DNA of 64,000 bases from Planctomycetota bacterium (lineage in GTDB: Bacteria > Planctomycetota > Phycisphaerae > WQYP01): the NCBI GenBank assembly GCA_021800165.1, contig JAJYZF010000010.1, positions 2,194-66,193 on the forward strand. The letters are read 5' to 3'. Positions 10,794 through 29,368 of this stretch are shown one piece after another; the stretch's first letter is position 1; each line of letters begins with the position of its first letter. The position numbers and the translations under genes are program-made. Below the pieces are notes generated by a model that saw nothing but the letters and a program-made list of their open reading frames with translations, was not told the origin of the DNA and searched no databases.

Positions 10794-13700
10794 TCATTGC
10801 GCCGATGCGGCAACCGACCGTACGTCGGCGATTCGCAGATAATAATTACGGATGATCCGGCGATAACCGGACGGGAATTTTTGCCTGGCGAGATTCAGCA
10901 GCCGCAGTTGTTGCAGCGGTCCAAGGTGTTCCCATTGCGCTGGACTGATGCCCAAGGCCGTTATTTGCAAAGGCACCATTCCGGCGCTCGTCAGCGGTCC
11001 CGAAAGGCCCGTTCCGGCGCTGCCCGGCGCGTGGCCCAAAGCCGAATGGCTTGCGCTGCCACTTCCAGGCTTGCCATGATTTCCACCGGCCATAGCTGAT
11101 GACTGCAAGGCGTCAGCCAGCGTTGCCCAGGCCCGGGTCAGCGACTGCGCTGCGGCGATCGCGGCTCCGGCATTGCCGGAGAGCGCTTGTGGTTGGGCGG
11201 CTAGCGCTGCCTGTACGTGTCGGGCTACCGCGGTCATGGTGTTCGAAGGGGTGCGGCCTGCGCCGTCCTGGCTGGAACCCGCCGCAGGACTACCTGCCCC
11301 GGCCGGGCGTTGCCAACGAGTGCCCATCGACGTGTTATGCGCTAGCGTCCTCATTTCCCCGCTGGCCGTACGCATTTCGGCCAGGGCTTGGCCCTGATAA
11401 TTCTGAGCCTCTTGTCGATCCTGGGTGGATTGCGCCGCGGCCGCCTGAGCTTGGGCCGTGTCGGCTCTTTGCATTTGTTGCAAAGCCGTTTCCAGATGCT
11501 CGGCCACATTTGGCGCACCGTCACGAGCTTCTTGTTGTAATTTTCGCCCTTCGGCAATGGCTCTGGCAATGGCCGCGGCAGTCTGGTGCTGGCCGTTTTC
11601 CACCGCTTGGGCTGTCGGTGTGTGATGGGCCGCCGCCGTCCGCGCGGCAAGGGTGGCCTGTCGGCTGGCCAATGCTCGGGCTCGCATGGCTGCCTCGGTC
11701 GCCTGCTGCGCCAAGTGCTTCTGTGATTCAAGGTGTTGCGTCTGGTCGCGTGTAGCCTTTGCCAAATGGTTATAAGCCTTTTGCAACAAACTTGCCCCGG
11801 CACCGCCGGATTGATGCGTGACTTGTTCCACCGCCTGCTTGGCATCGGCTCTGGCCTGAAGCAGATTCGCCCGCTCCCGCCTTGGCGGGTTTTCGTCAAG
11901 CATGTGGTGCACCTGCCGCCGAATGGCATCCGCTGCTGGCACCATGCGGTGCAGCGCTTGTGCCGCGTCTGGTTGTTGCCCAGTGGCCGTTGCCGTTTGA
12001 ACCTGTCGCGAAAGTTGGTTCAAGGATGCTTGATCACGCTTCGCCTGACTGAACTTGTGTTGGGCCGCAGGCGTCTGGGTCTGCTGGGCATACCGGTCCA
12101 ATTGCCTGGCCATGGCCCGCAAGGTCTGCACGATATTGTTACGTGCTTCCCTGGCCACTGCGGCATCGCCGCGGCTTTCCAGGGCGCGGCTTACGGCTCG
12201 CATCATCGCTGGGGTAACCGGCTGCGCCGACGCTGCGGCAATCGTCGGCTTATAGCGCTGGTTGAAACGCGTTATTTGTCGGTTCAGAATCTGCTGTTGG
12301 TCGGCCAGATGCTCCAAAGCGCTCCGCTGGGCTTGCCGAAAAATAGCCGGATGCAAATCAATATTTTCCACCGCCTGTCGGCGCACAATGGTGGCTACTT
12401 GTTGGGCTAACTGGCTGATGGCTGCCGCCATGTGCTTGGCGGCCGGAATTTGCAGTGATGGATGTTGACGCAACAACTGTTGCAGTTGTTGGGCCAAAGC
12501 CTGTTGGTCGTGGTAAGCAAGGTGGCGGGACCCGCTGTGGGCGAGCCTTTGAGCGATGGAGTGCTGCCGACGTGCCAACCGGGCCAGTGAATTCTTCAAG
12601 GCCGCACGAGCCTTGGCCTGATCCAAGGTGTGCAGCAGCCGCAACAGCGACGCTTGCGCTCGCTTTAGCCCCATCCGGCCAATCCGGGCCAACTCTGGCA
12701 TGGAGATGGGACGCGGCTGATCCGCAGCCAGACCGGTGCGGGCCAGATCATTGGCGGCCACCTGCACCGGACCGTGGGCCACACGAATGGCTTGTGCTGC
12801 TACCGCGCCAAAATCGCTCGCCAAGAGGGTCTTGGCCTGTTGCGCCAGAGTCTGCCCCGTGCGCAACACCCGCGCGGCCGCATCGGCCACCGCCGCCTTG
12901 CGTGCGGGATCCACCGCCCTGTACCTGGGCCAACCGACCAGCACCCGGACCTGGGTACGGCCCACCTTTACCGCGGTTAACGTCTGCACAATGGCTTTTC
13001 GCAGCAACTTCCATAATTTGTTATCCTGCCGGGTTTGATATTGGTGCCGCAGGTGGGCATCAACGATAAGCTCATGGCGGGCGGTCATGGCAAAATGGGC
13101 TTGCGGTCGGGCATTATCCAAGGCCTCGAGTTTATAATAAATCGTGTGGGCAGCGGCTCGGCCAGCCGCTCGGATCTGCGATTGCACCGCCATGATCCAA
13201 CTGCTTTTAATGGCCTTGGCGGGCTTGGGCGGTAAGGTCATATTGACGGTTCGCGGGGAAGAACCATCGGTCCACACCAAAGCCCGGATCGCCGAAATTC
13301 CATAGCTGTCGGTAGCGCTAAATACCACCGGTACGTGATCATCAGGCCGTACCCGCACCGTTAAGGCGGGGGTGAGAATATGGATCGTCGGCGGCCAGGC
13401 CGCATCCACCGTCACCGGCCATGGATGTTTGCTGATCGTCTTGACTCCATGGCGGTTGACCAACACCACCGCATAAGTGGCGTTGTGCGTCAACACCAGC
13501 TTCGCCTGATACGCCCGCGGACCATAAGCCATCAGCGGCAGCGTTTCCGGTGGACCGATATTTGGATTTACCATCAGCCGGCTCCCCACCGCCAGCAATT
13601 CGGTGGTATGAATAATCACCTGAACATGTGAACCAAACAGTCCGTGGATGGCTCCGCTGTGGTCATGAATAATTTTTTCCGGCAGCCCGGTATATGCCGG

Positions 13701-14381
13701 AAAGCGGTACCGTTTTTCAAAGAACGTAATCGTCGGCCCTTGTTCCACCGGGCCGGAATGTCGGTGAACGGATACGGCCGGTCCGGCGGCCGCCAGCCAG
13801 GGGAACACCGATCTTTGCACTCCCAGCGTCAGCGTTTGCGGCATCAGTGGCCAAAGGATGGCCCACGTGAGCACCAACGGGGCGCAAAGACCGGCCCAGC
13901 GTATCAATTTGGCGGTGGAAACAGCTTGCTCCGGATCTACAGCGTGCACATCATCAGCCGCCTGGTTAATAACGTGATGAACCAACTGCGGCGATCCCAT
14001 AAAGGGGTCCGGTCGTTTTTGGGCAAATTCCACGGCACTTAGAAAAAGTTCTTGCGATTGCGGTATGAGAGCATCCATGGTAGATGCGGCCGCCTGCAGA
14101 TTTACCCTTCGCAGAGCTGGACCAAGCACCCGCAGACATAACCCCGCCGGCACCACCCAGACCAGCAGAGCCAACACCCAACGCAGCGCCAGGGGCATGT
14201 GCGTGAATTCTCCCAGCAGGAGCACCCCGGCCAAGGCGACCGCCAAACTTACAAAGAGCACCCGTAATACCGCCAGACTGATCCGCACACTACGCTGCCG
14301 CCGCGCCACGCTTTGTAGCGATTCATGCAAGTTATCGGGCATCCGCCCTTTCGTTGCTGGATTGAAATTGCGAGCCATCAT
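10794..14381 (-). CDS. Large membrane-anchored protein with a long Gln/Ala-rich coiled-coil region (hypothetical; possibly DUF4175-like).
   Basis: Two N-terminal TM helices lie within the first 190 aa. A globular domain of about 400 aa follows. The last 600 aa or so are dominated by A/Q/R/L heptad-like sequence. The protein ends ...FPSGYRRIIRNYYLRIADVRSVAASAQ. ATG at 14381 (MMARNF...) is preferred over the TTG at 14420. Confidence 0.5.
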   Translation of the reverse strand: MMARNFNPATKGRMPDNLHESLQSVARRQRSVRISLAVLRVLFVSLAVALAGVLLLGEFTHMPLALRWVLALLVWVVPAGLCLRVLGPALRRVNLQAAASTMDALIPQSQELFLSAVEFAQKRPDPFMGSPQLVHHVINQAADDVHAVDPEQAVSTAKLIRWAGLCAPLVLTWAILWPLMPQTLTLGVQRSVFPWLAAAGPAVSVHRHSGPVEQGPTITFFEKRYRFPAYTGLPEKIIHDHSGAIHGLFGSHVQVIIHTTELLAVGSRLMVNPNIGPPETLPLMAYGPRAYQAKLVLTHNATYAVVLVNRHGVKTISKHPWPVTVDAAWPPTIHILTPALTVRVRPDDHVPVVFSATDSYGISAIRALVWTDGSSPRTVNMTLPPKPAKAIKSSWIMAVQSQIRAAGRAAAHTIYYKLEALDNARPQAHFAMTARHELIVDAHLRHQYQTRQDNKLWKLLRKAIVQTLTAVKVGRTQVRVLVGWPRYRAVDPARKAAVADAAARVLRTGQTLAQQAKTLLASDFGAVAAQAIRVAHGPVQVAANDLARTGLAADQPRPISMPELARIGRMGLKRAQASLLRLLHTLDQAKARAALKNSLARLARRQHSIAQRLAHSGSRHLAYHDQQALAQQLQQLLRQHPSLQIPAAKHMAAAISQLAQQVATIVRRQAVENIDLHPAIFRQAQRSALEHLADQQQILNRQITRFNQRYKPTIAAASAQPVTPAMMRAVSRALESRGDAAVAREARNNIVQTLRAMARQLDRYAQQTQTPAAQHKFSQAKRDQASLNQLSRQVQTATATGQQPDAAQALHRMVPAADAIRRQVHHMLDENPPRRERANLLQARADAKQAVEQVTHQSGGAGASLLQKAYNHLAKATRDQTQHLESQKHLAQQATEAAMRARALASRQATLAARTAAAHHTPTAQAVENGQHQTAAAIARAIAEGRKLQQEARDGAPNVAEHLETALQQMQRADTAQAQAAAAQSTQDRQEAQNYQGQALAEMRTASGEMRTLAHNTSMGTRWQRPAGAGSPAAGSSQDGAGRTPSNTMTAVARHVQAALAAQPQALSGNAGAAIAAAQSLTRAWATLADALQSSAMAGGNHGKPGSGSASHSALGHAPGSAGTGLSGPLTSAGMVPLQITALGISPAQWEHLGPLQQLRLLNLARQKFPSGYRRIIRNYYLRIADVRSVAASAQ

Positions 14382-15313
14382 TGCCCATCCGCTTGAAACT
14401 CTGCCATGGCTTAAAATCAATTATACCCGATCTTCGGCCGCCACAGGCATCTTCAGCTTCAATAAAGGGAGGATACCGCTACTGGGGTGACCGGCGTTCT
14501 CCCCCGGTCAACAGCACGGCAATCCCGATTTAATAGGACCTGCGGAATATTCTCTTATTGTCGGGGTGGCAACCGGTCGAAAAAGCTACTATCCCGGCAC
14601 GGAGGCTATGTCGAGAGGCCAGGGATCGGTAGACAACTTTGCGTGGAAATGCCGGAGTAATGTTTAATGCCAGCCTCTTTGCGAATCACCCTGACCGATT
14701 CGTCGTTTGCTTTACGCATGCTACCCGGAGGTGACGCCGCAACTGCCACGGCCGCCGGCCGTTCTACAACAATTTCCGCTCCGCGCCATCGCATTCATGC
14801 TCATCCTGCGGCGAGCCGCCGGCTCAGGCACAGCGTTCGGTGCCAAGCAACACGACGATTGCCAAAACTCCTGGTTCCAGCGGGCACCACCTTTCCGATG
14901 TGAACATTCCATGGTCTAAACATGATGTCGCAGTTGGGACTGCGGGAGGTTGGGGGCGGCTTGGCTTTGGCCCGGTGGACAGATGGTCCATTTTCCACCC
15001 GCATTTTGTTGCGCGTTCGGGAGTTCGGCGGCAAGAATTGCTGAGGGTTTGGTGGCTTTTTTGGCGTGGCGGAAGCCCGGTGCTCCACGGCCCAATCCCA
15101 AAGGTCCCGTTAGTCGTTCGCAGACCGGGCCAAATGGTGGCGTAGCAGGAGGCGGACAATCCTTTCACCATGCCACCCGTACCCTCGCCGACCGCAAGGA
15201 ATTATCATTGCCGGTTTTGCCGCCCGGCAGACACCTCCCTTGCGTTCCACCGCCGGTCACCATGAAACTGCATCTATCCACAGAAATCGGTGAGCTGGTG
15301 TCATTTGACCTGC

Positions 15314-15343
15314 CTTGACAACTAACAGGATCCCGCGTACATT
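15314..15343 (+). promoter_or_regulatory. Sigma70-type promoter CTTGACA-N17-TACATT.
   Basis: ccttgacaactaacaggatcccgcgtacattat lies immediately upstream of the riboswitch aptamer. Confidence 0.5.
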
Positions 15344-15361
15344 ATTTTGTGGGACAACCAA

Positions 15362-15422
15362 AGGAGATGGAGTCCTCCCGTAACCGCCCGGATCGAGATA
15401 TCAGGGCTAATGACTCCTGGCG
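15362..15422 (+). ncRNA. Fluoride riboswitch (crcB motif), copy 2.
   Basis: AGGAGAUGGAGUCCUCCC-GUAACCGCCC-(GGAUCGAGAUAUCA)-GGGC-UAAUGACUCCUGG shows P1 GGAG/CUCC, a conserved AUGG.GU loop, and AACCGCCC paired to GGGC as P3. The 3' UAAUGACUCCU segment is complementary to the loop GGAGUC, giving the pseudoknot. All of this matches the crcB-motif consensus. Confidence 0.8.
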
Positions 15423-15594
15423 AGTGTCGATGCGCTCGATACGGGCTTGAAGGCAAGCCAGCGTTGAGGTGTTGGTAGCCGGGAATTGATGGTTGCGGGT
15501 AGTTTACAGGCTCCGTCGGATCCTACTACACACGAAAACTTTTCGCTCCGCAGCGACGCCGTAGCCACCCAATGGAATCGGTTGGCGGGTCCGT

Positions 15595-16566
15595 TTGTCA
15601 TGGAGAATCGCTTCAATGCCGCGGATGATAGCATATAACCTTTTGCAGGTGGCAGTGGTGCTGTTGGCCTCGCCGTTGGCGGTGGGCGTGCTCAACCGGC
15701 TCAAGGAGCGGGTACAGTCCAAACAGGGGTCAAGTATCTTTCAGGTGTACCGCGATATTTGGAAGTTATTCCACAAAGATCAGATTATTTCCGACCAAAG
15801 CACCTGGATTTTCCGCTTCACGCCTTACCTGATTTTTGCGGCCCCAATTTTAGTAACACTGCTGATTCCTGTGCTCACGAGTTATCCGCTGTTTTTTGCC
15901 TTTATGGGAGACATGCTGGGGGCTGGTTTTGTCCTGGCGCTGGGCGGATTTTTCGCAGCACTAGCCGCTGTGGACACAGGCAATCCGTATGGGGCGATGG
16001 GAGCGAGCCGCACCCGCATGGTCGGGTTTCTGGCCGAGCCGGTCTTTATGGTGGTGTTTTTCACGGTTTGTTTCGTGGCCAATTCCACCATTCCCTATAT
16101 TGTCCAGCAAACCTGGGTGCACCCGAAATCCAATTTTTTTGACCCATCGCACGTACTTATTGTTATTGCCTTTTTCATGCTTGTTCTTGCGGAAACGGGG
16201 AAAATACCCGTGGATAACCCGTCCGGCCATTTTGAATTGGCGATGATTGATGAATCCAAATCGCTGGAATATTCCGGGGCGGGCGCGGCCCTGGTGAAGT
16301 GGGGCGGCTGCATGAAATTTTTTGTTTTGCTGTGCGTGCTCCTCAATGTGCTCATCGCCCCGTGGGGCCTGGCTTCCGGAACAGGAATCGGCGATGTTGC
16401 CTGGGCAATTCCGCTGGTGTTGCTCAAAATCCTGGCCGCCATCCTAGCAATCACAGTGGTGGAAAGCTCGCTGGCGAAGTTGCGGCTGTTCCGGATTACG
16501 GCATTTCTAGGCCTGGCGCTGGTGGTGGCGGTGGCCGCCATGCTGGCACGTATGATGCGCATCTGA
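15595..16566 (+). CDS. Ehr/Hyf-type membrane subunit, NuoH/HycD family.
   Basis: LKERVQSKQGSSIFQVYRDIWKLFHKD matches the NuoH/HycD N-terminal loop. About 8 TM helices. The true start may be the ATG at 15615 or 15624. Confidence 0.7.
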   Translation: MSWRIASMPRMIAYNLLQVAVVLLASPLAVGVLNRLKERVQSKQGSSIFQVYRDIWKLFHKDQIISDQSTWIFRFTPYLIFAAPILVTLLIPVLTSYPLFFAFMGDMLGAGFVLALGGFFAALAAVDTGNPYGAMGASRTRMVGFLAEPVFMVVFFTVCFVANSTIPYIVQQTWVHPKSNFFDPSHVLIVIAFFMLVLAETGKIPVDNPSGHFELAMIDESKSLEYSGAGAALVKWGGCMKFFVLLCVLLNVLIAPWGLASGTGIGDVAWAIPLVLLKILAAILAITVVESSLAKLRLFRITAFLGLALVVAVAAMLARMMRI

Positions 16567-16570
16567 CCTG

Positions 16571-17263
16571 ATGGAGAAGCCGCCAATGGTAACGCACCCG
16601 ATCATGTCCTGGCTCAACGCTTGGAATCAACTGATGGCCGGCTTTTTCCTGCTTTGCAGCTTTGGACTTATTGCGGCGGCCCAGGTAACCGGCTGTATGC
16701 GCTTTTATGTTCTACAATCTCTGTTTCTCGCCTGTTCGGCGGCGTTGCTGGGCATGTTGGACAACAGCACCGATTTATTTATGGTCGCTGGCATCTATAT
16801 CATTGCCAAGGTGATCCTGATTCCCGTGCTCCTTAAACGCACGGCTCGCGAGGCAATGATCGCCCGGCGTGAACTGGTGCAGGTGATCGGGGTACCTTCC
16901 TCCCTGCTCATTGCGCTGGGCCTTACCCTGGTCGCCTATTATATCGCCCTGCCCCTGACCGCCGGAGCCAATAGCGGTACTCGAATCGGTCTACCCATTG
17001 GACTGGCAGCGGTTTTTATTGCGGCCTACACCATCACGGTACGGCGCGAAGCTTTGCCACAGATGCTAAGCCTGCTGGCCATTGAAAATGGGGCATTCTT
17101 TGCGGGCGACGCGATTGCTCCGCATTTTCCGCTTATTGGCGAACTTGCGGCGGTCTTCGATGTGCTGATGATCGTGTTGGTTCTGGGTGTGCTAAGCACA
17201 CAGGTGCACAGATCACTGGGCAATACGACCGTGGGTTCGCTGGCACAGCTTGGGGAGGATTAA
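16571..17263 (+). CDS. HyfE-like small membrane subunit of a group-4 hydrogenase-related complex.
   Basis: About 220-aa polytopic membrane protein lying between the NuoH-like and NuoM/N-like genes, the same position as hyfE in hyf operons. Confidence 0.5.
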   Translation: MEKPPMVTHPIMSWLNAWNQLMAGFFLLCSFGLIAAAQVTGCMRFYVLQSLFLACSAALLGMLDNSTDLFMVAGIYIIAKVILIPVLLKRTAREAMIARRELVQVIGVPSSLLIALGLTLVAYYIALPLTAGANSGTRIGLPIGLAAVFIAAYTITVRREALPQMLSLLAIENGAFFAGDAIAPHFPLIGELAAVFDVLMIVLVLGVLSTQVHRSLGNTTVGSLAQLGED

Positions 17264-17267
17264 AGAC

Positions 17268-18722
17268 ATGTGGATTGGCCTGACCTTGCTGTTGCCGGTG
17301 GTGGCGATATTGATCACGGCGCTGCCGGTGCGCGCCGCTGTCGCCGGGACGGCTGCGGCACTTCTGGCGGCGCTCAACGTGGCGGTGGCCGCGACAATCG
17401 CGGTGCAATTGGCTGGACACTCGCCGGTAACTTTGGTACCGGGGTGGTTGGCCATTGATTCATTTGGCGGAATCGTACTGTTGCTGGAAACATTCGGGGC
17501 CTTGACAGCCCTGCTTTTTTCCGTCGGGTATCTGAAATCGCCGCACATTTCAGACCGACGGCTCAAGCGGTATCTGCTGTGGCTTCACCTGTTCCTCTTG
17601 GCGCTGTATGCCATTCCACTGCTCAATGAACTGGCTTTGGTGTGGTTGGCCCTGACCTTGACTACGTTGTTTTCAGTCTTTCTGGTGAGCTTTGAACGTA
17701 CTCCCGCAGCGTTGGAGGCGGGTTGGAAATATGCCCTGCTTACCACCTTGGGAGCCGCCTTGGCACTCTTGGGAATTCTGCTGCTTTACTGGGCCCTTAC
17801 CAAGGCCGGAGGCTCAGATTTCACCTGGCATGGGCTGACCCGCGCCGCTGGGGAAATGCCCGGGAGCATTGTCAGTCTGGCGTTTCTTTTGATGCTGGTG
17901 GGTTTTGGCACCAAAGCGGCGTTGATACCGTTTCATGCCTGGCTGCCTGATGCTTACAGTCAGGCACCATTTCCGGTGTGCGCGATGCTGTCAATTCTGG
18001 AAAGCGTGGCGATACCATACGTGATTTTGCGTCTGGTTGGCACTATTGGCGCTGCGCATGGCAGCCACGCCCCACAGTGGCTGCTGGTATTTGGCCTGGT
18101 CTCGGCGGGGGGGGCGGCACTGCTGATTTTGCAAACGCGTGAGTACAAGCGGTTATTCGCGTATTCCACCATTGAAAACACCGGGATTATACTAACGGCG
18201 GGGGCCATGGCCTCCAACCATTTGAAGCAGGCGGCCCTGTGGCAAATGATTGCGCACGGGTTCACCAAGCCGGTCATTTTTCTGGCTGCGGGAATCATGT
18301 TCGTGCTGGTCGGCAAGCTGCGCATTTCCGAAGTTCGCGGGGTGTTATCAGCCTCGTGGGTGGTCGGTTCAGTGGTGATGTTGGCCGGACTGGCCCTGGC
18401 TGGAGCACCGCCTTTTGCGATTTTTTTAAGCGAGTTGGCGATCTTAAAAAGCGGTATGGTGGGCAGTCAGGCTTGGGTGGTGATGCTGCTGGCGGCTTTT
18501 ATGATCGTTTCATTTTGTGCCATCACCTATCACCTCTTCAGAATGGTTTTAGGCAAGGCCCCCGAGGACTCCGCCCGGGATCGGTCGGTTATTGCCATCG
18601 CTTGCTGGTGGGCGCTGGTGGTGGCCTTGGTTCCGGTGGTTGTATTAGGTTGGTGGATGCCTCCATTTCTGCACCATTTAATAACGGGTGGTGCTGCGGC
18701 TCTGGGAGGAACGTCGCCATGA
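17268..18722 (+). CDS. NuoM/NuoN/HyfF-type antiporter-like membrane subunit.
   Basis: Conserved antiporter-family blocks are present: FHAWLPDAYSQAP, AYSTIENTGII, KPVIFLAAGIMF. The ATG at 17268 follows the RBS ggggagga. Confidence 0.75.
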   Translation: MWIGLTLLLPVVAILITALPVRAAVAGTAAALLAALNVAVAATIAVQLAGHSPVTLVPGWLAIDSFGGIVLLLETFGALTALLFSVGYLKSPHISDRRLKRYLLWLHLFLLALYAIPLLNELALVWLALTLTTLFSVFLVSFERTPAALEAGWKYALLTTLGAALALLGILLLYWALTKAGGSDFTWHGLTRAAGEMPGSIVSLAFLLMLVGFGTKAALIPFHAWLPDAYSQAPFPVCAMLSILESVAIPYVILRLVGTIGAAHGSHAPQWLLVFGLVSAGGAALLILQTREYKRLFAYSTIENTGIILTAGAMASNHLKQAALWQMIAHGFTKPVIFLAAGIMFVLVGKLRISEVRGVLSASWVVGSVVMLAGLALAGAPPFAIFLSELAILKSGMVGSQAWVVMLLAAFMIVSFCAITYHLFRMVLGKAPEDSARDRSVIAIACWWALVVALVPVVVLGWWMPPFLHHLITGGAAALGGTSP

Positions 18723-20323
18723 CCAAATTCCCCTCCTCAGAGCTGCGCAACTTTGCCGAGCAATGCCAGAGCTTTGGCCCGGTCGAAATGCTCCCGCAAT
18801 CGGATTCACTCGTAGCGGTGGTCAACTGCCCGTCCGAGGTGCTCAAATCGCTGGCGGAGTTCCTCGTCCATTCCCTGCAGTATAATTTCGGATCATTGGT
18901 GGTGGAGGCACCCCCCAACCAATGGAAACTCATTTATTTGTTCTATGGCCGTGAAAACCCGTCTTTAGTGCAGCTATGGGTATACCTAAAATCGGACCAT
19001 CCACGGGTTGACTCCATCAGCGATAAAATTCACTCCGCCGATTGGCATGAACGGCAGGCGGAAGATCTGTTTGGATTGGTGTTTACGGGACATCCTCGGC
19101 TGGGCGATTTTGTCCTCCATGAGGAATGGCCCGAAGGCGTGAACCCCATGTGCACCGGGTTTAGCGCCACACATCCCGTAAAGGAGCAGGTGGTTGATCC
19201 CGCATGGCGGCCGGCGCGAATATTGGAAACGCCGGGGGCCTTTTTAATGCCCATCGGCCCGGTCTATGCGGACTATTACGAATCGGCGCAGTTTTTTCTG
19301 GAAACTGTCGGCGAAGATGTGGTGCGCATGATTCCACGCTTTTTTTTCAAATATCGTGGTGTGGAAAAACTGGCCGAGGGCCAGCCGTGGCAACGGGTGC
19401 TGCTGATGGCGGAACGATTTTCCGGAACCTCGGCCATTGCCCATTCCACGGCGCTATGTGCAGCGCTGGAACAGATCTACCAGATTCAGCCACCACCGCG
19501 AGCCTTGGGTCTGCGTCTGATTCTGGCGGAAATAGAACGCATACGTCATCACTTTGCGGTGCTCTCGGATATTTGCCACGCCTCGGGCATGTCGGTGCCG
19601 TCGGCCCAGATGGATATTCTGGAAGAACAAGCCCTGCGTTTAAGTGGTCAGTGTGCTGGACATCGTTACCTCTATGGTTGGGTGACGCTGGGGGGGCTTA
19701 ACCGGGATATGACGCTCACCGCCCTTGATACCATTGCCCGTGAAACGCAACTCCTGGCCAAAGCCTCCGCCACCATCCACAGCGCCCTGCAATTTACCAG
19801 CAGCTTTCTGGATCGCTTTGAAGGTGTTGGGGCCATCAGCGCGGCGGGTGCCCGGGAACTGGCTCTGGTAGGCCCTATCGCCCGGGCCAGCGGAGTCAGA
19901 ACAGATTTGCGGCTGATGTTGCCGTACGGGCCCTACGCACAAGATACCGGATTTTTGGCCATGACTGAGCCACTGGAACAGGAAGGGGATGGCTATGCCC
20001 GGATTCGCGTACTTTTTGCGGAAATCCAGCAATCCGTGAAGCTCATCGATGCGACGGTAGCTGCGTTGCCCACGGGGCCGGTGCGGGTGGAGGCTGGCGG
20101 TGTGCGGGGCCAAAGCGCATTTGGATGGGCGGAAGCTCCCAACGGCGCAGCGTTTCATTATGTTCGCCTGGATGCTCAGGGATGTGTGCAACGCTACCAG
20201 ATTGCCACACCGTCGTTTGCCAATTGGCATGGGTTTCATATTGCGGCGGAAAATTTTGCCTTCCAGGATTTTCCCATCATGATGGCTAGTTTTGGACTTT
20301 CCATCGCGGAATCGGATCGTTAG
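18719..20323 (+). CDS. Fused NuoC-NuoD-like large subunit (HycE/HyfG homologue) LACKING the [NiFe]-binding cysteines; Ehr-type.
   Basis: NuoC-like WHERQAEDLFGLVFTGHPRL. In the NuoD/HycE part, HRGIEK is conserved as YRGVEKLAEG. RFSGTSAIAH replaces the R-x-C-G-x-C-x3-H motif. The C-terminus ...PSFANWHGFHIAAENF...SIAESDR replaces DPCxxCxxR. ATGA overlap with the upstream gene. Confidence 0.8.
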   Translation: MTKFPSSELRNFAEQCQSFGPVEMLPQSDSLVAVVNCPSEVLKSLAEFLVHSLQYNFGSLVVEAPPNQWKLIYLFYGRENPSLVQLWVYLKSDHPRVDSISDKIHSADWHERQAEDLFGLVFTGHPRLGDFVLHEEWPEGVNPMCTGFSATHPVKEQVVDPAWRPARILETPGAFLMPIGPVYADYYESAQFFLETVGEDVVRMIPRFFFKYRGVEKLAEGQPWQRVLLMAERFSGTSAIAHSTALCAALEQIYQIQPPPRALGLRLILAEIERIRHHFAVLSDICHASGMSVPSAQMDILEEQALRLSGQCAGHRYLYGWVTLGGLNRDMTLTALDTIARETQLLAKASATIHSALQFTSSFLDRFEGVGAISAAGARELALVGPIARASGVRTDLRLMLPYGPYAQDTGFLAMTEPLEQEGDGYARIRVLFAEIQQSVKLIDATVAALPTGPVRVEAGGVRGQSAFGWAEAPNGAAFHYVRLDAQGCVQRYQIATPSFANWHGFHIAAENFAFQDFPIMMASFGLSIAESDR

Positions 20324-20335
20324 GAGATTAAAGCC

Positions 20336-21091
20336 ATGTTCGGATGGTTTGTGAAGGGTGCCACGTCACGGGTAAGAACCACGCGCTATCCCGCACACGA
20401 CGAAACTGCGCCTGGCGTTACCCCTGGCCGTCCCGTAGAGACCACTTGTGACAACGAATTGCTCGCTATTGGCCTGGCCGCCACCTGCCCCACGGGCGCA
20501 ATCAAGCCCGCAGCGTTCAAGACGACTGCGGATATTTCTCGGTGTGTACACTGCATGGCTTGCACACGCGGCGAAAATACCATGAGTTGGCAGGCAGATT
20601 ACCGCTGGGCCAAATGGGTTGGCGACAACGCGCGACGTGCCGCCCGCCACCGCCCATTTCGAAAATCGCTCCATATTCGTGTGGTGGATACCGGTTCCTG
20701 TGACGCGGTCCTTAGTGAAATCAAACAGCTTGTCAAACCATATTACAACATGCACCGCCTCGGCTTTTTTATCACCCCCACGCCGCGGCACGCCGATGTG
20801 CTTATGGTCGCCGGGCCGGTCACCAGCCAGATGCGTCTGGCTCTATTAAAAACCTACGCTGCTATGCCCGAACCGAAATGGGTGATGGCGGTGGGCAATT
20901 GTGCCATCAGCGGATGTGTTTTTGCTCCCAGTTTTATTGCCAACGGGTCGGTGGCGGGTGTTATTCCCTTGGATGTACAGGTACCCGGCTGTCCACCACC
21001 ACCGCTGGCAATTTTACACGGCTTGCTGCTTTTAACCGGGCGCGAGGCCGAAATGCCACCCGTGGACCAGCCTCTCGGAGGTACCCCATGA
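20336..21091 (+). CDS. Fused ferredoxin-like (NuoI/HycF-type, degenerate) plus NuoB/HycG-type small subunit.
   Basis: C-terminal half reads SLHIRVVDTGSCDAVLSEI...RHADVLMVAGPVTSQM...PEPKWVMAVGNCAISGCVF...VPGCPPPP, so the NuoB fold retains 3 of the 4 N2-type Cys. The N-terminal half has CPTGAI and CVHCMAC only, giving incomplete CxxCxxCxxxCP motifs. Confidence 0.7.
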   Translation: MFGWFVKGATSRVRTTRYPAHDETAPGVTPGRPVETTCDNELLAIGLAATCPTGAIKPAAFKTTADISRCVHCMACTRGENTMSWQADYRWAKWVGDNARRAARHRPFRKSLHIRVVDTGSCDAVLSEIKQLVKPYYNMHRLGFFITPTPRHADVLMVAGPVTSQMRLALLKTYAAMPEPKWVMAVGNCAISGCVFAPSFIANGSVAGVIPLDVQVPGCPPPPLAILHGLLLLTGREAEMPPVDQPLGGTP

Positions 21092-23241
21092 CCATTCTGC
21101 CGGCGCTATTTTTTCTCGCCATGATTGCGTTGTGCGTCACCGGAGCGACGCTTTCAGCTTGCGTGGCTCAGCACCGCATCGGCCCATTGCTGGCGGTGAC
21201 CGGACCCCTGGCCTCACTGATGATTCTGGCCTGCGCAACATGCGTTTTGATCACCCGACAACCGATGCAAATTGACCTTTGGCATTTGCCGCTCTTGGGA
21301 TTGCTGCGCCTGCGGTTGGATTCAGTGTCGGCGCTGTTTGTGCTGGCCTTGGGCATTTCATTTTTACCGGCGTACCTGTTCTCTAAAAGTTATATGAACC
21401 GGTATCCAGCGCATTACAACATTCGCGGCTTTGGAATTTTTTTCCATCTTCTGCTGATGGCCTGCACGCTGGTTCTAGCCGCCGGCGATGTAGTTACGTT
21501 CCTGTTCACGTGGCGATTGATGTCAGCATTGGCAACTTTCCCCATCACCTTGGAACATCGTCAGGATGAGCATCGCCGGGCTGGATACATTTTTCTGGCC
21601 ATGAATGAAGCGGGAATTATTCTTGCCACCGTTGGCTTGCTTTTAATGACCGCGTGGGCGGCGGGCCATATCGGATTTGCGGCGTTGCACCAGGCCATGG
21701 AGCATATCCCGGACGGATGGCGCTGGGCGATTTTTCTGATTATCTTTGCAGGCTTTTCCGTCAAAGCCGGACTGGTTCCCGTCAGTTCCTGGCTACCGCG
21801 GGCCCATCCGGTGGCCCCCGCCAATATGTCCGCCGTTTTATCGGGCTGTATGCTCAATTTCGGCATCTACGGCATCATCCGTTTTGACGCCATCATCATG
21901 GCTCCCATCACGGCAGGACCAGGCCTTGTTGTTTTGGCCATCGGAGGCCTCTCGGCCCTGCTGGGTATTTTATATGCCACCACTGATAACGACCTTAAAC
22001 GCATGCTGGCCCACAGCTCCATTGAAAACCTGGGCATTGTTGCGGTGGATGTCGGTGCGGGGATGGTTTTTGATGCTTATCACATGCCCACCATCGCGGC
22101 CATTGCCTGGGTCGTGGCGATTTACCAGATGATCAACCATTCCGCCTATAAAACGCTTCTGTTTTTGGGCGCTGGTGCCATCGACCATGGTACCGGCACG
22201 CGCGACATGAACCGCCTGGGCGGGCTGCTTAAACGCATGCCGGTGACAGCGGTATTATTTTTGGTTGGTGCGCTGGCTATTTCCGCCATGCCGCCGTTTA
22301 ATGGCTTTGTTAGCGAATGGCTAACGCTGCAAACCATTTTGCGCTCCACCGAACTCGCATCGCGCTTCAGCAGGGTGGTTTTTGCGCTCTGCGGTGCCAG
22401 CTTGGCGTTGACGGCGGCATTGTCCGTCACCTGTTTTGTGAAGACCTTTGCGATGAGTTTTCTTGGATTGCCTCGCAGTGATACCGTCCGCACCGCGATG
22501 GAAAGCCCGCCGTCCATGCGCCTGGCCATGGGAATCCTGGCCGTGGGCTGCATCGCGCTGGGTCTTGGAGCCACATGGATGGTTCCGCTGGTGGACCGCG
22601 CCATGACTCCGCTGACCCACCAGTTGGCCGCCAACGCCCTGGTTCCGCCGTTTTTTACACTCCAACACGGTAACGCCCAATTCAGCCGGGGCTTTCTGAC
22701 CAGTTTTGGCAAAATTGGGGCTGACGTCGGCAGCGCGGTTATTCCAGCACGCAGCCTGGTTGTTCTCCATCAGGGCCAAGCCGCTAATCCGGTGGTTTAT
22801 GCCATGTCTACCTTTTATATAGCCGCAGTGCTGATCGGGATCATGTTGATCGTCTATCTGCTGGTGCGCCTTACCACGCGCCGGCGCGTGGTACGTGTCG
22901 GCGAACCTTGGGCCGGTGGATTGCGCCGCCTCTGGCCGGATATGTCCTACAGCGCTACGGGGTTTTCAAATCCGGTGCGAGTCATATTCAAGTCGATCTT
23001 CAGCCCCGCCCAGCGCGAAGATTCCCAAGTCGCGGTGGCCGGCCATTTCCGCACCGCCATCCGCAAACCTCCGCGAGACACCTACATCGTCGATCGCCTA
23101 TTCCTGCTACCCCTGGTTGCCGGGGTAAAATTGCTTGCCGGATTGATGGCCCGTCTGCATCGGCCCGCAGTGGTCAATGCCTATGCGGCCTGGGTGTTTA
23201 TCGTGCTTCTTTTTGTGCTGGTTATGAATCGTTTATTTTAA
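21088..23241 (+). CDS. NuoL/HyfB-type antiporter-like membrane subunit with a C-terminal extension.
   Basis: SWLPRAHPVAPANMSAVLSG, AHSSIENLGIV and KTLLFLGAGAIDH are NuoL/MrpA-family blocks. ATGA overlap with the upstream gene. Confidence 0.75.
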   Translation: MTILPALFFLAMIALCVTGATLSACVAQHRIGPLLAVTGPLASLMILACATCVLITRQPMQIDLWHLPLLGLLRLRLDSVSALFVLALGISFLPAYLFSKSYMNRYPAHYNIRGFGIFFHLLLMACTLVLAAGDVVTFLFTWRLMSALATFPITLEHRQDEHRRAGYIFLAMNEAGIILATVGLLLMTAWAAGHIGFAALHQAMEHIPDGWRWAIFLIIFAGFSVKAGLVPVSSWLPRAHPVAPANMSAVLSGCMLNFGIYGIIRFDAIIMAPITAGPGLVVLAIGGLSALLGILYATTDNDLKRMLAHSSIENLGIVAVDVGAGMVFDAYHMPTIAAIAWVVAIYQMINHSAYKTLLFLGAGAIDHGTGTRDMNRLGGLLKRMPVTAVLFLVGALAISAMPPFNGFVSEWLTLQTILRSTELASRFSRVVFALCGASLALTAALSVTCFVKTFAMSFLGLPRSDTVRTAMESPPSMRLAMGILAVGCIALGLGATWMVPLVDRAMTPLTHQLAANALVPPFFTLQHGNAQFSRGFLTSFGKIGADVGSAVIPARSLVVLHQGQAANPVVYAMSTFYIAAVLIGIMLIVYLLVRLTTRRRVVRVGEPWAGGLRRLWPDMSYSATGFSNPVRVIFKSIFSPAQREDSQVAVAGHFRTAIRKPPRDTYIVDRLFLLPLVAGVKLLAGLMARLHRPAVVNAYAAWVFIVLLFVLVMNRLF

Positions 23242-23253
23242 GAAAGGTAAGTT

Positions 23254-24525
23254 ATGTTGATTGAATCGGTCACCGCCCTGGAAATACTGGATTCGCGGGG
23301 CAATCCTACTCTCAAGGTTACCGTCCACCTCGAAGATGGCACGCGGGCTGGCGCTTGGGTACCTTCTGGAGCCTCCACGGGTGAACATGAAGCCGTTGAG
23401 CTGCGCGATCACGACCAACAACGCTACGGCGGCAAGGGAGTGTTGAAGGCAGTGGCCGCGGTGAACACCGCCATCGCTTCACGCCTGGCAGGCATGGATG
23501 TTACCCGACAGGAAGAGGTGGATCGGGCGCTCATCGAAGCCGACGGCACGCCCAATAAAAGCCACCTTGGAGCCAACGCCATTTTAGGCACCTCCATGGC
23601 GGTGGCACGGGCGGCGGCCATAGTTCAGCGTGTACCATTATATCAGTATCTGGGCGGCACGAACGCGGCCCGCCTGCCAGTGCCGATGATGAATATTCTC
23701 AACGGCGGAAAGCACGCGGATAATTCGCTGGATTTTCAGGAATTCATGATTATGCCGGTGGGTGCTTCGTCCTTTGCCGAGGCCTTGCGCTGGGGTGTGG
23801 AAACATTTCACGCACTCAAATCCATTCTGCACGCGCGCGGTTACTCCACAGCGGTGGGCGACGAAGGTGGATTCGCCCCGAGTTTAAAGCGCAACCACGA
23901 AGCCTGCGAGCTTATTGTGGAGGCCATCACCGCGGCAGGCTATCAACCGGGCCGGCAAATCGCCTTGGCCATAGATCCCGCAGCCAGTTCTTTTTACCGC
24001 GACGGCAAATATCACCTCGAAAAGTCGGGGGAGGGGGTTAAAACCAGTGCGGACATGACCAATCTGTTTGCATCATGGCTGGATCAATACCCCATCGTGT
24101 CCCTTGAAGATGGCCTGGACGAAAACGACTGGGACGGTTTTAAAGCCCTGACTGCGGCCCTGGGCCGACGCGCGCAGATTGTCGGCGATGACATTTACGT
24201 GACCAATACACGCTTTATCGCCCGCGGCATTCGTGAACACACCAGTAACGCGGTGCTGATTAAACTGAATCAAATCGGTACCGTGTCCGAAACCACTCAG
24301 GCGGTGCAAATGTGCAAACTGGCGCAATGGAAATGGGTTATTTCCCACCGCTCCGGAGAAACCGAGGATGCCTTTATGGCTGACTTTGCCGTCGCCATGG
24401 GCGGCGGCCAGATTAAAACTGGATCTGCGTGTCGGTCTGAACGCATCGCCAAATATAACCGTCTGCTGGAAATTCAGGCGGAACTTGGTGCCAAGGCCGA
24501 TTTCAGCAATCCATTGGTATCCTGA
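23254..24525 (+). CDS. eno: Enolase (phosphopyruvate hydratase).
   Basis: [29 protein letters not shown]...[15 protein letters not shown]...[13 protein letters not shown]...SHRSGETED: canonical enolase throughout. RBS agaaagg. Confidence 0.95.
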
Positions 24526-24548: not shown

Positions 24549-26552
24549 ATGGGCGGCCTGAACGAAAATCATCGGCGACACCTGCTTTTGGCATTTCAGC
24601 ATGTGGATGAAACCTTGGGCCGGGCCTATGCGGCCGTTCGCCAAGGCGGGAGTGATTCTCCATTTCCGGCCTTCAAGTATGATGTCGCGCTCGACCAGGA
24701 TCGCGTCATTGCCACGTACCTCAACGAGTTACGACGGGCGATGGTCAGAATTATCAACGCCCATGGTATAACGATCCCCGAGGCGCAAATCAGTGCCCTG
24801 TGGGCCTTCCGCAGTGCGCTCCTGGCTGTCAGCAATACCATTGAAGAGTTGCGCCCAGAGTATATGGCTGGTTTTGGTGCTGTGGATGAAGCTGCCAGAG
24901 CGGATCTACAAATGATATCTGCGGAGCTTCTCAACATCATCGATCGATTGAGCAAAAGTCTTGCGGAGGTGCCTACCCATGATATTGCAACGCGGTTGCA
25001 CCAACTCAAGAGTCGCGACGGGGTCGCCACCCTCGCCCGCCGACTTGACGAGATCATCACCCGGCGGAACCTGGTGGAAATTCGGCCGGCGCTGGCCGTG
25101 CTCGTTGAGCGCATGGAACACGCCGAGATTGAAATTGCCGTGTTTGGCCGAGTGAGCTCGGGCAAGTCGTCGCTTCTGAATTTTCTCTGGCAGCATGAAA
25201 TTTTGCCGGTAGGGGCGGTTCCCATTACCACCATTCCCACGCAACTCAGCCACGGCCAGGTCGTCCAAGTGACGGTGAAGATCGGCACTGATCAAGTCAG
25301 GGTTATTGATCCGGATCAAATCAAAGATTTTGTCACCCAGGCCGGCAACCCGGACAATCGCAAGCATGTGACGGCGGTCCAGATCGAGTTGCCCAGCTCA
25401 CGCATGGGCCCAGGTGTCGCTTGCGTGGACACGCCCGGACTTGGATCCCTTGGAGGGCAGGGATCGGCCCATGCACGGGCCTATCTGCCCCGTTGCGATA
25501 TCGGCCTGGTGCTGGTTAGCGCTACTGTCGGATTAACCGACTTGGATATTGAATTGGTTGATGCATTGCGACGGGCCGGGGCTGAAATCATGGTATTGCT
25601 GACCAAGGCCGATTTGCTTCCAGAACACGATCTTGCCTCGGTCTTGGCATACGCCCAAACGCGGCTTCACCAACTTTCAGAGTATCCTCCTGGCCTCTAT
25701 GGTATAAGTGTGCGCCCACCGCGGACACAATTGACGCTGGACTGGTTTGAGAAGCGCTTAGCTCCTCTGCTGGGCCGGGCTGCCGCGCTTCGCGATGCTT
25801 CCATCCACCATAAACTTCAGCAGCTTGGTAGTACAGTGGTCGACGTTCTCAAGCGGCGGGAGCAAGCCGCGGATTCGGTGGTGCCGGGCCAGCAGGATAC
25901 CATTATCCACGCGCTGCTTGCACAGGCCACGACGGTTTTAGATGCCGCAGGGCGTGTCAGTCCGGCGAGCCTGCCAACGGCGCGTCAATTGGCGGAAGAC
26001 ATCATCAACCAGACATCGCAGGTATGCTCTCAAGAACCATGGGACGAGGCGGCGGTGTCCGAAAAATTTGCTTCCGTGGCCCAAGCCGTAGTTGCGCATG
26101 GAGTTCATCATGCCGTCGAGTCGTTGACCATCGCTCGTGCTCAGGTCGAAATGTCGCTGAAGATGGCCTCAAAGTCGCTAGCCAATGCCAGGTACGAAGA
26201 TTTGCCGTCTATCTCAGGGGTGCCTGTTTTTGATCCGACACAACTTCTGGCCGGTGTCCGAATGCATGCGCCCGCGTGGACGGTAATCAACGCATCCATG
26301 CGACGCCACGCTGTGGCCGCGCAACTTCGGGAATTGCTGCAATCCCGCCTGGAGGAATTGCTGGCTGATTACAACAGCAGGTTCTGGCAGTGGCGCCGCA
26401 ACATGCTGGGTGAATTAAGCACCCACTATAACGCTACCGCCGCAGTGCTCCGCAGTTTGGTGGTTACGAGTGCGGATCATTCCGACGGTTCTGTGTCGGA
26501 GGATATTGCCGATTTGGAACACGCCATGGCCCAATTCGCCTCGCCCTGTTGA
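24549..26552 (+). CDS. Bacterial dynamin-like GTPase.
   Basis: G1 GRVSSGKSSLLN, G2 Thr in ITTIPT, G3 DTPGLGS, G4 TKADLL. Long helical regions flank the GTPase domain. Starts 24 bp after the eno stop. Confidence 0.7.
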   Translation: MGGLNENHRRHLLLAFQHVDETLGRAYAAVRQGGSDSPFPAFKYDVALDQDRVIATYLNELRRAMVRIINAHGITIPEAQISALWAFRSALLAVSNTIEELRPEYMAGFGAVDEAARADLQMISAELLNIIDRLSKSLAEVPTHDIATRLHQLKSRDGVATLARRLDEIITRRNLVEIRPALAVLVERMEHAEIEIAVFGRVSSGKSSLLNFLWQHEILPVGAVPITTIPTQLSHGQVVQVTVKIGTDQVRVIDPDQIKDFVTQAGNPDNRKHVTAVQIELPSSRMGPGVACVDTPGLGSLGGQGSAHARAYLPRCDIGLVLVSATVGLTDLDIELVDALRRAGAEIMVLLTKADLLPEHDLASVLAYAQTRLHQLSEYPPGLYGISVRPPRTQLTLDWFEKRLAPLLGRAAALRDASIHHKLQQLGSTVVDVLKRREQAADSVVPGQQDTIIHALLAQATTVLDAAGRVSPASLPTARQLAEDIINQTSQVCSQEPWDEAAVSEKFASVAQAVVAHGVHHAVESLTIARAQVEMSLKMASKSLANARYEDLPSISGVPVFDPTQLLAGVRMHAPAWTVINASMRRHAVAAQLRELLQSRLEELLADYNSRFWQWRRNMLGELSTHYNATAAVLRSLVVTSADHSDGSVSEDIADLEHAMAQFASPC

Positions 26553-27315: not shown

Positions 27316-27883
27316 GCGAAGGCTTTTCCGGATCTACCGGAGATCGGGATTCAGATTGCAGGGGAAACAGCAATCGTTTCCTGACGCCTGCCAATCGGGC
27401 CGTTCGCACGAAGCAGGAGTCATCAGTCTCGGGGACGAGACGGTTCCGGCGAACTCCATCGCCTTAATCTGCCTACTCCATACTACGCGGGCACCAGGCC
27501 AAATTCAACACGCCCATTTACATCTCACCCTACACCTGGGCAACGCGCCCCGGGGTGTGGCAATGTTTCCCAAAAATGCAATGGCGTAGGAGACTTGGGA
27601 TATTTTAAAACCCGGGCCACCGAATTCAGCACCCCGGATTGGCCCGAGGATCCGATGGTATAAGAACGTGCATCTGAAACATTCATGAAGCAAGCCAGTG
27701 CCTGTTTTATTCCAGCGCAGGCCGAAATCCTCCGGCCGCAGCGAGTCCAAACCACGGGCGTGGCATACCATCCCGGTGTCGAAGCTGAAAACTTTGGTCG
27801 GGCGATCATAGGAAACATACTTTAAACATAGGCGGCTAAAAGCCAAGCCTGATTATCGCGGACGATGGTCCGCAGGGGTTGGT

Positions 27884-27912: not shown

Positions 27913-27927
27913 TTTGCTCGTCGTATG

Positions 27928-27996
27928 GTAGGTGATGGAGTTCACCTGAACCGTCCCTGTTCGGCCTCAAGGGCCTGGGGACTGATAACTCCTGAC
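27928..27996 (+). ncRNA. Fluoride riboswitch (crcB motif), copy 1.
   Basis: AGGUGAUGGAGUUCACCU-GAACCGUCCC-(extra hairpin GGCCucaagGGCC)-GGGAC-UGAUAACUCCUGAC. P1 is AGGUG/CACCU. Pseudoknot pairs GGAGUU with AACUCC. P3 pairs GUCCC with GGGAC. Confidence 0.8.
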
Positions 27997-28028
27997 GGCT
28001 GGACCGTCGGGGGTTTGTGCATGGCCGA

Positions 28029-28067
28029 CCCTGGCGGATCAAAAATCAGCCGGGGTTGTTTTGTCTT
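28029..28067 (+). terminator. Intrinsic terminator (the riboswitch expression platform).
   Basis: A CCCUGGC/GCCGGGG 7-bp stem with a 13-nt loop is followed by UUGUUUUGUCUU. Confidence 0.55.
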
Positions 28068-28093
28068 CGGATCAATCTCTTTGGAGCAGCGTT

Positions 28094-28477: not shown

Positions 28478-28538
28478 CGTACCGGAAGACGACGGTGGCC
28501 AGGGCATGGATATTTTCCGGTTCTGTAAGGAGTCGGCC

Positions 28539-29303: not shown

Positions 29304-29368
29304 CGATCCCGACAAAAATCACGCCAGGCAACTGCCGGAATTACGGTCCGGTGCGTATAATCCCCAGT

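Follow-up and report, generated by a model that had tools for sequence, protein, structure and literature searches.

A fluoride riboswitch-headed operon of a Planctomycetota bacterium is predicted to encode a nickel-free Ehr complex, not a formate hydrogenlyase

Complexes of the energy-converting hydrogenase-related (Ehr) class are related to the group 4 [NiFe] hydrogenases, lack the Ni-Fe ligands, and have a function that papers of 2019 and 2023 call unknown or still to be put to experiment (PMC6349859, PMC10284858). The crcB or fluoride motif (RF01734) has been reported upstream of formate hydrogenlyase genes since 2010 (PMC2864571), and a 2024 review places formate hydrogenlyase among the commonest riboswitch-linked enzymes and reads the association as a fermentation shift (PMC11139923). 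The two descriptions meet in the stretch of DNA analysed here, 64,000 nucleotides of a Planctomycetota bacterium (assembly GCA_021800165.1, contig JAJYZF010000010.1, positions 2,194 to 66,193; hereafter the window), in which an operon headed by a fluoride riboswitch is predicted to encode an Ehr-type complex of Hyf ancestry with six subunits, resembling HyfC, HyfE, HyfF, HyfG, the N-terminal half of HyfH fused to HyfI, and HyfB. No paper that ties Ehr or hydrogenase-related complexes to fluoride was found in the literature searched. The Ehr class, which is widespread, includes the ehrA-D/L/S cluster of Geobacter sulfurreducens and was reviewed by Marreiros et al. in 2013.

The first-pass annotation of the window drew attention to positions 18719-21091, which hold precisely two adjoining + strand genes:

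18719..20323, + strand, Ehr large subunit (NuoC-NuoD/HycE-like fusion, 534 aa; PF00329, PF00346, PF00374)
20336..21091, + strand, Ehr small subunit (HycF-like plus HycG/NuoB-like fusion, 251 aa; PF01058 at residues 128-231)

Among solved structures, HycE of Escherichia coli (7z0s_E, E = 8.7e-50 by phmmer) is nearest to the large subunit, which can be aligned with it over its full length. In a MAFFT alignment with HycE, HyfG and NuoCD of E. coli MG1655, which agrees with the phmmer alignment on both motifs, the L1 region reads ERFSGTSAIAHS opposite DRVCGICGFAHS, with both cysteines replaced by serine (S235 and S238), and the C-terminal L2 region reads FGLSIAESDR opposite LDPCYSCTDR, with one cysteine replaced by serine (S528) and the other by glutamate (E531). 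In neither alignment is one of the four [NiFe] positions occupied by a cysteine. The claim of the first-pass annotation that all [NiFe] cysteine ligands have been lost is borne out by this comparison, in which both motifs are as it had described them; judged from the alignments, coordination of a [NiFe] centre by the canonical cysteines is impossible in the large subunit. The MBH complex of Pyrococcus keeps all four of these cysteines and the MBS complex two; the window complex keeps none. The large subunit also terminates at the arginine where HycE is cleaved, without a C-terminal extension, and so resembles NuoCD (..SDVDR).

The substitutions are shared by an extensive family. The best 120 homologues of the large subunit are of equal length and 49-100% identical to it, and in all of them the two motifs take RF[ST]G.. 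and ..AE.DR forms. In a 116-sequence family alignment the four former cysteine positions are occupied by serine in 112, serine in 112, serine in 116 and glutamate in 115 sequences, and of the 104 large subunits encoded in related loci, 91 have the complete Ser/Ser/Ser/Glu combination. Because this tetrad is near-invariant in the 116 homologues, the [NiFe] site is taken to have been remodelled and not to have decayed, and because those homologues carry the matching residues, a sequencing error that would restore the cysteines is excluded. In the family, 138 of the 534 positions are at least 97% conserved, many of them around the former active site, and the neighbours of the Ser/Ser/Ser/Glu pocket include invariant Phe, His and Arg residues. 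In the alignment with NuoCD, the quinone-site Tyr stands opposite the invariant Gly236 of the family, and the His stands opposite a residue that is Tyr187 in the window protein and Ala in most of the family.

Among the matches listed in an exhaustive search of 1.84 billion representatives, all relatives of at least 37% identity are without the cysteines. Cysteine-bearing hydrogenase-like relatives (RxCGxC with ELCYxCxDR or DPCxxCxxR) begin at about 36% identity, and a second cysteine-less type (RISGD.. with NLSYAGNDL) is interleaved with them at 28-36% identity. Ehr-type proteins are diverse by these measures, and the large subunit of the window falls into one well-defined clade among them, a placement based on identity tiers and motif classes in place of a formal phylogeny. 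An AlphaFold2 model of the large subunit (mean predicted local distance difference test score, pLDDT, 80.6; predicted template modelling score, pTM, 0.84) retrieves HycE (7z0s_E) as its best Foldseek match (TM score 0.83), followed by NuoCD; the model is unreliable at the pocket, where residues 163-209 and 529-534 have pLDDT below 50.

The small subunit combines a HycF-like half (residues 1 to about 105) with a HycG/NuoB-like half (residues about 112-240), as the first-pass annotation had recognized; the second half is identified by PF01058 and the first by a 75-member family profile that matches HycF (7z0s_F, E = 9.8e-6) over profile positions 1-99. The register of the ferredoxin-like half was taken from a hidden Markov model alignment with HycF. 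From HycF motif 1 (CIGCAACVNACP) only the last cysteine, that of the CP pair, is kept, as C51 (CPTGAI), and from motif 2 (CIFCGRCEEVCP) the CxxCxxC is kept, as C70, C73 and C76 (CVHCMAC), and the CP is gone, so that the two full CxxCxxCxxxCP motifs of a 2x[4Fe-4S] module are not present. Clusters in the 2x[4Fe-4S] ferredoxin fold are each bound by three cysteines of one motif and by the CP cysteine of the other. Because of this cross-ligation, C51, C70, C73 and C76 together make one complete [4Fe-4S] site, and they are 100%, 100%, 92% and 100% conserved, respectively, in 119 family sequences, in which the nearby C38 is not conserved. The ferredoxin-like half is thus predicted to be a clean one-cluster derivative, which lost one cluster and kept the other, and not a mere degenerate remnant; the first-pass annotation was right that its motifs are incomplete and wrong to call it degenerate. 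The retained cluster is presumably of the N6b type, adjacent to N2, going by the ligand assignment that Sazanov and Hinchliffe (2006) are reported to have made for Nqo9 of T. thermophilus. In complex I the clusters follow the order N6a-N6b-N2 (PMC7021789, PMC8577454).

The extension at the C-terminus of HycF, which carries a metal site formed by Cys117/120/155/158 and contacts HycB and FdhF (PMC9474812), is absent from the small subunit in the profile alignment. The small subunit retains the N-terminal amphipathic helix shared by the superfamily (helix 2-10 of the AlphaFold2 model, which has pLDDT 87.8 and pTM 0.87); Foldseek matches of this model are dominated by the NuoB domain and are uninformative about the N-terminal half. 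The fused 251-aa form is the rule across the family, and it is supported by the conservation of M1, W4 and G8. One public gene call for this small subunit (P0124) starts at an internal codon, and the resulting 178-aa product has dropped the ferredoxin-like half.

In the NuoB-like half, GSCDAV lies opposite GSCNGC of MbhJ (6cfw_J) and the equivalent HycG motif, and the third and fourth canonical cysteines are found in GNCAISGC (C189) and PGCPPP (C219); the first, C122, is also canonical. Among the 119 sequences, position 122 is always Cys, position 125 is Cys in 101 and Val in 18, position 189 is Cys in 99%, position 194 is Gly in 92 and Cys in 26, and position 219 is Cys in 81 and Asn, Gln, Ala, Ser or His in 38; the canonical four are found together in 62. 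The family has the hydrogenase-type CxxC, and the tandem CC of NuoB is absent. Cys194 accompanies Val125 in all 18 sequences that have the latter, and it is found together with Cys125 in seven. Since Cys194, five residues past the third ligand, covaries with Val125, the Val125/Cys194 pair of the window's lineage is read here as a lineage-specific ligand swap. The earlier count of three out of four N2-type cysteines therefore stands for the canonical positions and overlooks both Cys194 and the retention of the canonical four by most of the family. Cysteine at position 532 of the large subunit was considered as compensation for replacement of C219; the paired loci that were examined all retained C219.

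The remaining subunits are encoded on both sides of this gene pair, behind the riboswitch:

15315..15343, + strand, sigma-70-like promoter match TTGACA-17-TACATT (a consensus match only; one found, 0.2 expected)
15354..15426, + strand, fluoride riboswitch aptamer RF01734 at the operon head (49.3 bits, where the gathering score is 34; E = 1.2e-10)
15595..16566, + strand, NuoH/HycD/HyfC-like membrane subunit (PF00146, E = 6.9e-30; likely true start ATG at 15616)
16571..17263, + strand, HyfE-like membrane subunit (230 aa; by BLASTP 25% identical across 208 aa to HyfE of E. coli, E = 7e-11)
17250..18722, + strand, HyfF-like antiporter-like subunit (PF00361, E = 5.3e-41; 30% identity to E. coli HyfF)
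21085..23241, + strand, HyfB-like antiporter-like subunit, 718 aa (PF00361, E = 3e-45; 30% identity to E. coli HyfB)

All six Ehr genes of the window are intact, and their order is conserved in all complete loci. The HyfE-like protein has no match in Pfam; HyfE, HyfF and HyfB are the nearest E. coli paralogues of the respective membrane subunits. Most of the conserved charged residues are retained in the NuoH-like subunit, among them the counterparts of NuoH E157, D213, E220 and E228, and in the whole family E216 is replaced by Ser and E218 by His. Both antiporter-like subunits keep the Lys of transmembrane helix 7 (TM7) and the Glu of TM12. In the window, Thr136 of the HyfF-like and Arg144 of the HyfB-like subunit stand in place of the canonical Glu of TM5, which is invariant in the E. 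coli references NuoL/M/N, HyfB/D/F and HycC. At this position of the HyfB-like subunit, 99 of 120 sequences (the window's own and its best homologues) have Glu and 21 have Arg. Where all three genes could be read together (63 loci), the state of the membrane arm goes with that of the proximal cluster: 13 of 13 loci with Arg plus Thr or Ala at the two TM5 positions have Cys194 in the small subunit, and 50 of 50 loci with Glu at both have a residue other than Cys there. The sub-clade without TM5 Glu in either antiporter-like subunit is represented by the window and by loci L001-L015 and L023, and an Acidobacteriota-type locus (Arg and Ala at TM5, with both Cys125 and Cys194) looks intermediate. 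Because the membrane-arm and proximal-cluster changes are coupled, a functional shift in the lineage of the window is suggested. With the TM5 Glu gone, canonical proton pumping may be altered or lost in its sub-clade.

Taken as a gene set, the operon has what defines an Ehr complex: a large subunit homologous to NuoD and the group 4 hydrogenases from which both CxxC motifs are absent, a NuoB/HycG-like small subunit with ligands for a proximal [4Fe-4S] cluster (the role of Cys194 being deduced from covariation), and a NuoH-like gene, two PF00361 genes of the Mrp/NuoL-like type and a HyfE-like gene in one co-oriented cluster. The assignment to Ehr made in the first-pass annotation is thereby upheld. 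The clade differs from other Ehr proteins in its specific Ser/Ser/Ser/Glu tetrad, where other cysteine-less clades have RISGD... and NLSYAGNDL, in the fusion of its small subunit to a one-cluster HycF remnant, and in its near-constant position behind a fluoride riboswitch. With formate hydrogenlyases 1 and 2 (Hyc and Hyf, group 4a, 7Z0S) the window complex shares the NuoC-NuoD fusion, the local gene order large subunit-ferredoxin-small subunit, the HyfB, HyfC, HyfE and HyfF paralogues and the HycF amphipathic helix, but it has neither the [NiFe] ligands nor the C-terminal extension of the large subunit, and its HycF counterpart has been cut after residue 105 or so and fused to HycG, with loss of one of two clusters and of Cys117/120/155/158. 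Homologues of HycB/HyfA, HycI, HycH, HypA/B/C and NuoE/F/G were found neither in the window nor in 105 related loci, and only two of the 105 have an FdhF-like gene; the cysteine ligands, the cleavable extension with maturation genes nearby and the FdhF and HycB/HyfA electron input that mark a group 4a formate hydrogenlyase are not assembled here. With complex I the window complex shares the fold and subunit logic, the E-x-D-R end of the NuoCD large subunit and, apparently, the N6b-to-N2 end of the cluster chain, but it has no N-module (NuoE/F/G), the Tyr and His of the quinone site are gone, and its proximal cluster is bound by CxxC or a variant of it instead of the tandem Cys-Cys of NuoB, and these differences set it apart from NDH-1.

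The predicted control of this operon by fluoride is not peculiar to the window. Its aptamer lies in the 5' leader, on the same strand and above the gathering threshold, as in the RF01734 regulon; folding of the leader RNA is not distinctive (z = -1.3). A contig scan with the single protein reached Planctomycetota only, and a wider set was obtained through homologue-encoding contigs and a profile-based metagenome scan. All 21 genome loci that could be evaluated have a riboswitch heading the operon. In Planctomycetota, an aptamer on the + strand holds that position in every locus with sufficient upstream sequence, two of these aptamers scoring just below the gathering threshold (33.5 and 33.8 against 34 bits), and in some of these loci the aptamer is followed by metallophosphoesterase and enolase genes and then by the six Ehr genes. 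In other lineages the aptamer is directly upstream of the NuoH-like gene in nine of nine evaluable loci, which include metagenome-assembled genomes labelled Syntrophobacteraceae, Desulfomonilaceae and Acidobacteriota, a representative of the type with Asn at position 219, and a cluster that also holds a protein from a Gammaproteobacteria metagenome-assembled genome. The metagenome scan contributed 80 further loci at 48-58% identity; with a covariance model built from 32 of the aptamers, 40 of the 41 evaluable loci (those with at least 3.8 kb of upstream sequence) show a + strand match at 3.2-4.8 kb upstream of where the large subunit starts. Going by aptamer placement, fluoride-riboswitch control is a property of the whole clade, almost without exception. 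The first-pass annotation had spoken of a fluoride-regulated copy, which is correct as to the aptamer and too narrow as to the clade, in which the window's operon is not one regulated copy among many. The members of the sequence clusters revealed no cultured organism that carries the complex.

The Ehr genes are followed by two further co-oriented genes, and Rfam recognizes three fluoride riboswitches in the window, two of them in the region beyond:

23254..24525, + strand, enolase, a classical fluoride target, directly downstream and co-oriented (PF00113, PF03952)
24549..26552, + strand, dynamin-like GTPase, 667 aa, the final co-oriented gene (PF00350, E = 1.1e-20)
27407..27472, - strand, second fluoride riboswitch (53.3 bits), upstream of a metallophosphoesterase gene split across two frames
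27922-28001, + strand, third fluoride riboswitch (40.8 bits), preceding crcB and a double-DUF190 gene
28061-28477, + strand, crcB, behind the third riboswitch
28506-29303, + strand, double-DUF190 gene, after crcB

This setting resembles the known fluoride regulon in the aptamer 5' of the operon and in the presence of crcB, DUF190, enolase, MutS-like and phosphoesterase genes nearby; the difference is that the formate hydrogenlyase of the literature is a nickel-free Ehr complex in every case examined. Among the 105 loci, many of them truncated, the neighbours are enolase in 24 (on the same strand in 22 of these), a dynamin-like GTPase in 19, crcB in 14, DUF190 in 13 and a metallophosphoesterase in 10.

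Several of the neighbouring genes deserve comment in their own right. Dynamin-like GTPases of 600-810 aa are also found beside fluoride riboswitches and the Ehr operon in L019 (1750-3552), L025 (18021-19703) and L027 (7162-9597), and are without mention in the fluoride literature consulted. The metallophosphoesterase gene of the window (26576-27315, - strand) is split into an N-terminal part (26770-27315) and a C-terminal part (26576-26938) in overlapping frames, either by a frameshift mutation or by an assembly error; its homologue in L006 (4755-5465) encodes an intact protein of 236 aa and is placed at the head of the Ehr operon, with the riboswitch on one side of it and enolase on the other. 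In L019 (16814-19911), which is labelled Syntrophobacteraceae, and in L022 (15918-18946), the Ehr operon is followed by a pair of MutS_V-domain genes of about 500 aa each, matching the mutS association of the crcB motif that was noted in 2010. A 338-aa open reading frame after the double-DUF190 gene (29351-30367) has no Pfam match and recurs in only one of the 105 related loci, and a 1208-aa open reading frame just upstream of the operon promoter region (10794-14420, - strand) also has no Pfam match.

A second, different cysteine-less Ehr cluster is located in L028 (15055-20762, - strand), directly upstream of crcB and DUF190 and on the same strand. The two motifs of its large subunit read RVSGVGSVAH and GLTIAGCDR, and its small subunit is a HycF-HycG fusion with a canonical GSCNGC and eight ferredoxin-motif cysteines, spaced as CxxxCxxCxxxC in motif 1 and CxxCxxCxxxCP in motif 2. 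Because this fusion keeps all eight cysteines, the fusion of HycF to HycG may be older than the loss of the first cluster. The location of the L028 cluster suggests that the links of Ehr to fluoride genes may reach beyond the Ser/Ser/Ser/Glu clade.

As to function, ligands for two [4Fe-4S] clusters, a coupling subunit, two antiporter-like subunits and a fluoride aptamer are all present in silico, and on balance the operon probably encodes a fluoride-induced, ion-translocating complex for pH and membrane-potential homeostasis that may be driven by redox chemistry through a two-cluster wire. Rising cytoplasmic fluoride would act through the riboswitch to bring about synthesis of the complex together with enolase and the dynamin-like GTPase. 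The complex would be a membrane machine that translocates H+ or Na+, sustaining the membrane potential and the cytoplasmic pH as these are drained by HF influx, by electrogenic exit of F- through CrcB and by inhibition of enolase. Among the riboswitch-linked classes Na+/H+ antiporters rank second in frequency, and maintaining pH homeostasis is considered central to fluoride tolerance (PMC11139923). If the complex is redox-driven, it would oxidise a soluble donor of low potential, for instance ferredoxin; the wire would start at the single surface [4Fe-4S] cluster of the HycF-like half, tentatively in the N6b or medial position, continue through the proximal [4Fe-4S] cluster of the NuoB-like half, and end at some acceptor in the cysteine-free Ser/Ser/Ser/Glu pocket that faces the NuoH-like coupling subunit. 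Redox drive is favoured because the cluster ligands and the pocket are strongly conserved, and it is held tentatively, as something possible and short of probable; ion translocation, the N6b assignment and the physiological benefit are likewise deduced.

Several observations weigh against this proposal. No electron donor or acceptor genes are encoded near the operon, the pocket has no recognizable redox cofactor ligands, and the quinone-binding His and Tyr of NuoD are missing. C219 is replaced in about a third of the family (38 of 119), which would be odd for an obligatory electron wire, and in the sub-clade of the window the TM5 Glu has been replaced in both antiporter-like subunits. With regard to induction by fluoride, neither an intrinsic terminator nor any other expression platform was recognized after the aptamer at 15354-15426, and one metagenome locus, L059 (Ga0315280_10004762), has no fluoride riboswitch even when the search filters are switched off. 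L059 could serve as a natural control for regulation.

Some of the same observations would suit the main rival, a secondary, redox-free cation/proton antiporter of the Mrp (CPA3) type, with the peripheral arm as a structural or regulatory cap and the clusters serving only in folding or redox sensing; under fluoride such a complex would exchange delta-pH for membrane potential, which would lower HF-driven fluoride accumulation and power CrcB. The complex resembles Mrp, MBH and MBS in its TM7 Lys and TM12 Glu and in a plausible role in pH or cation homeostasis, and a redox-free antiporter would account for the absence of donor and acceptor genes nearby, for the lack of cofactor ligands in the pocket and for the dispensability of the fourth proximal ligand in about a third of the family. 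It would also fit the second rank of Na+/H+ antiporters among riboswitch-linked classes and the protection of yeast by intracellular acidification (PMC11139923). We nevertheless regard it as unlikely, though it deserves to be kept in view: the four distal-cluster and three proximal-cluster cysteines are conserved across phyla with hardly an exception, the large subunit has 138 near-invariant positions grouped about the former active site, the coupling residues of the NuoH-like subunit are conserved, and known Mrp antiporters have no peripheral arm and function without one. A more radical proposal is that the complex handles fluoride directly, the Ser/Ser/Ser/Glu pocket binding F-, HF or a Mg-F species as sensor or substrate, with an anion path by way of Arg144 and Lys in the sub-clade of the window. 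The near-universal fluoride-riboswitch control of the clade, the replacement of four soft thiolates by near-invariant hard oxygen donors and the covariation of the TM5 Glu-to-Arg change with the other changes in 13 of 13 loci speak for it; yet crcB exporters already adjoin many of these loci, the AlphaFold2 model is unreliable exactly at the pocket, no likeness in sequence or structure to the binding sites of Fluc or CLC-F was seen or tested for, and the normal TM5 Glu is present in the greater part of the clade (50 of the 63 complete loci), so that an anion path cannot be the general mechanism. Direct handling of fluoride is accordingly a long shot.

The two explanations that would make the locus ordinary fare worse. 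That it encodes a genuine formate hydrogenlyase or group 4 [NiFe] hydrogenase, as in the fluoride literature (PMC2864571, PMC11139923) and in source annotations such as that of JGI ("formate hydrogenlyase subunit 5"), agrees with HycE of the E. coli enzyme being the best solved relative, and is nonetheless barely tenable when all four Ni-Fe cysteines are gone in the window protein and its 116 homologues, the C-terminal maturation extension is missing, HycB/HyfA, HycI, HycH and Hyp genes are absent and FdhF essentially so from the 105 loci, and the HycF extension that contacts HycB and FdhF is lacking (PMC9474812). That the locus is a decaying pseudo-operon or a sequencing artefact might be suspected from the frameshifted metallophosphoesterase gene next to it, and is scarcely credible given that the six genes are intact and that a 100% identical 534-aa protein is independently on record (database entry P0001). 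A pseudogene or sequencing error was rejected, since more than 100 loci from several phyla, at 48-86% identity, share the motifs and the gene order.

The Ehr class was already known; what the analysis adds is the family-level link of this clade to fluoride, the corrected label, and the covarying substitutions at ion-pumping residues. The riboswitch-linked formate hydrogenlyase and the nickel-free Ehr clade are indicated to be the same thing, which would correct a label in use since 2010, and this correction of annotation bears on physiological models of fluoride stress. The predicted cofactor content of the clade is now defined as two [4Fe-4S] clusters and no Ni, and the Ehr class gains a concrete inducer, a phenotype to test and its first testable physiological context. 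The sub-clade that lacks the TM5 Glu offers a natural experiment on the Glu-Lys pair that is central to current models of complex I pumping. If the direct-fluoride reading were true, the complex would be a complex I-type machine repurposed to sense or move fluoride and not for redox chemistry, and the replacement of the universal Glu-Lys pair by Arg144-Lys in the Planctomycetota/Acidobacteriota sub-clade would have turned an antiporter-like half-channel into an anion path.

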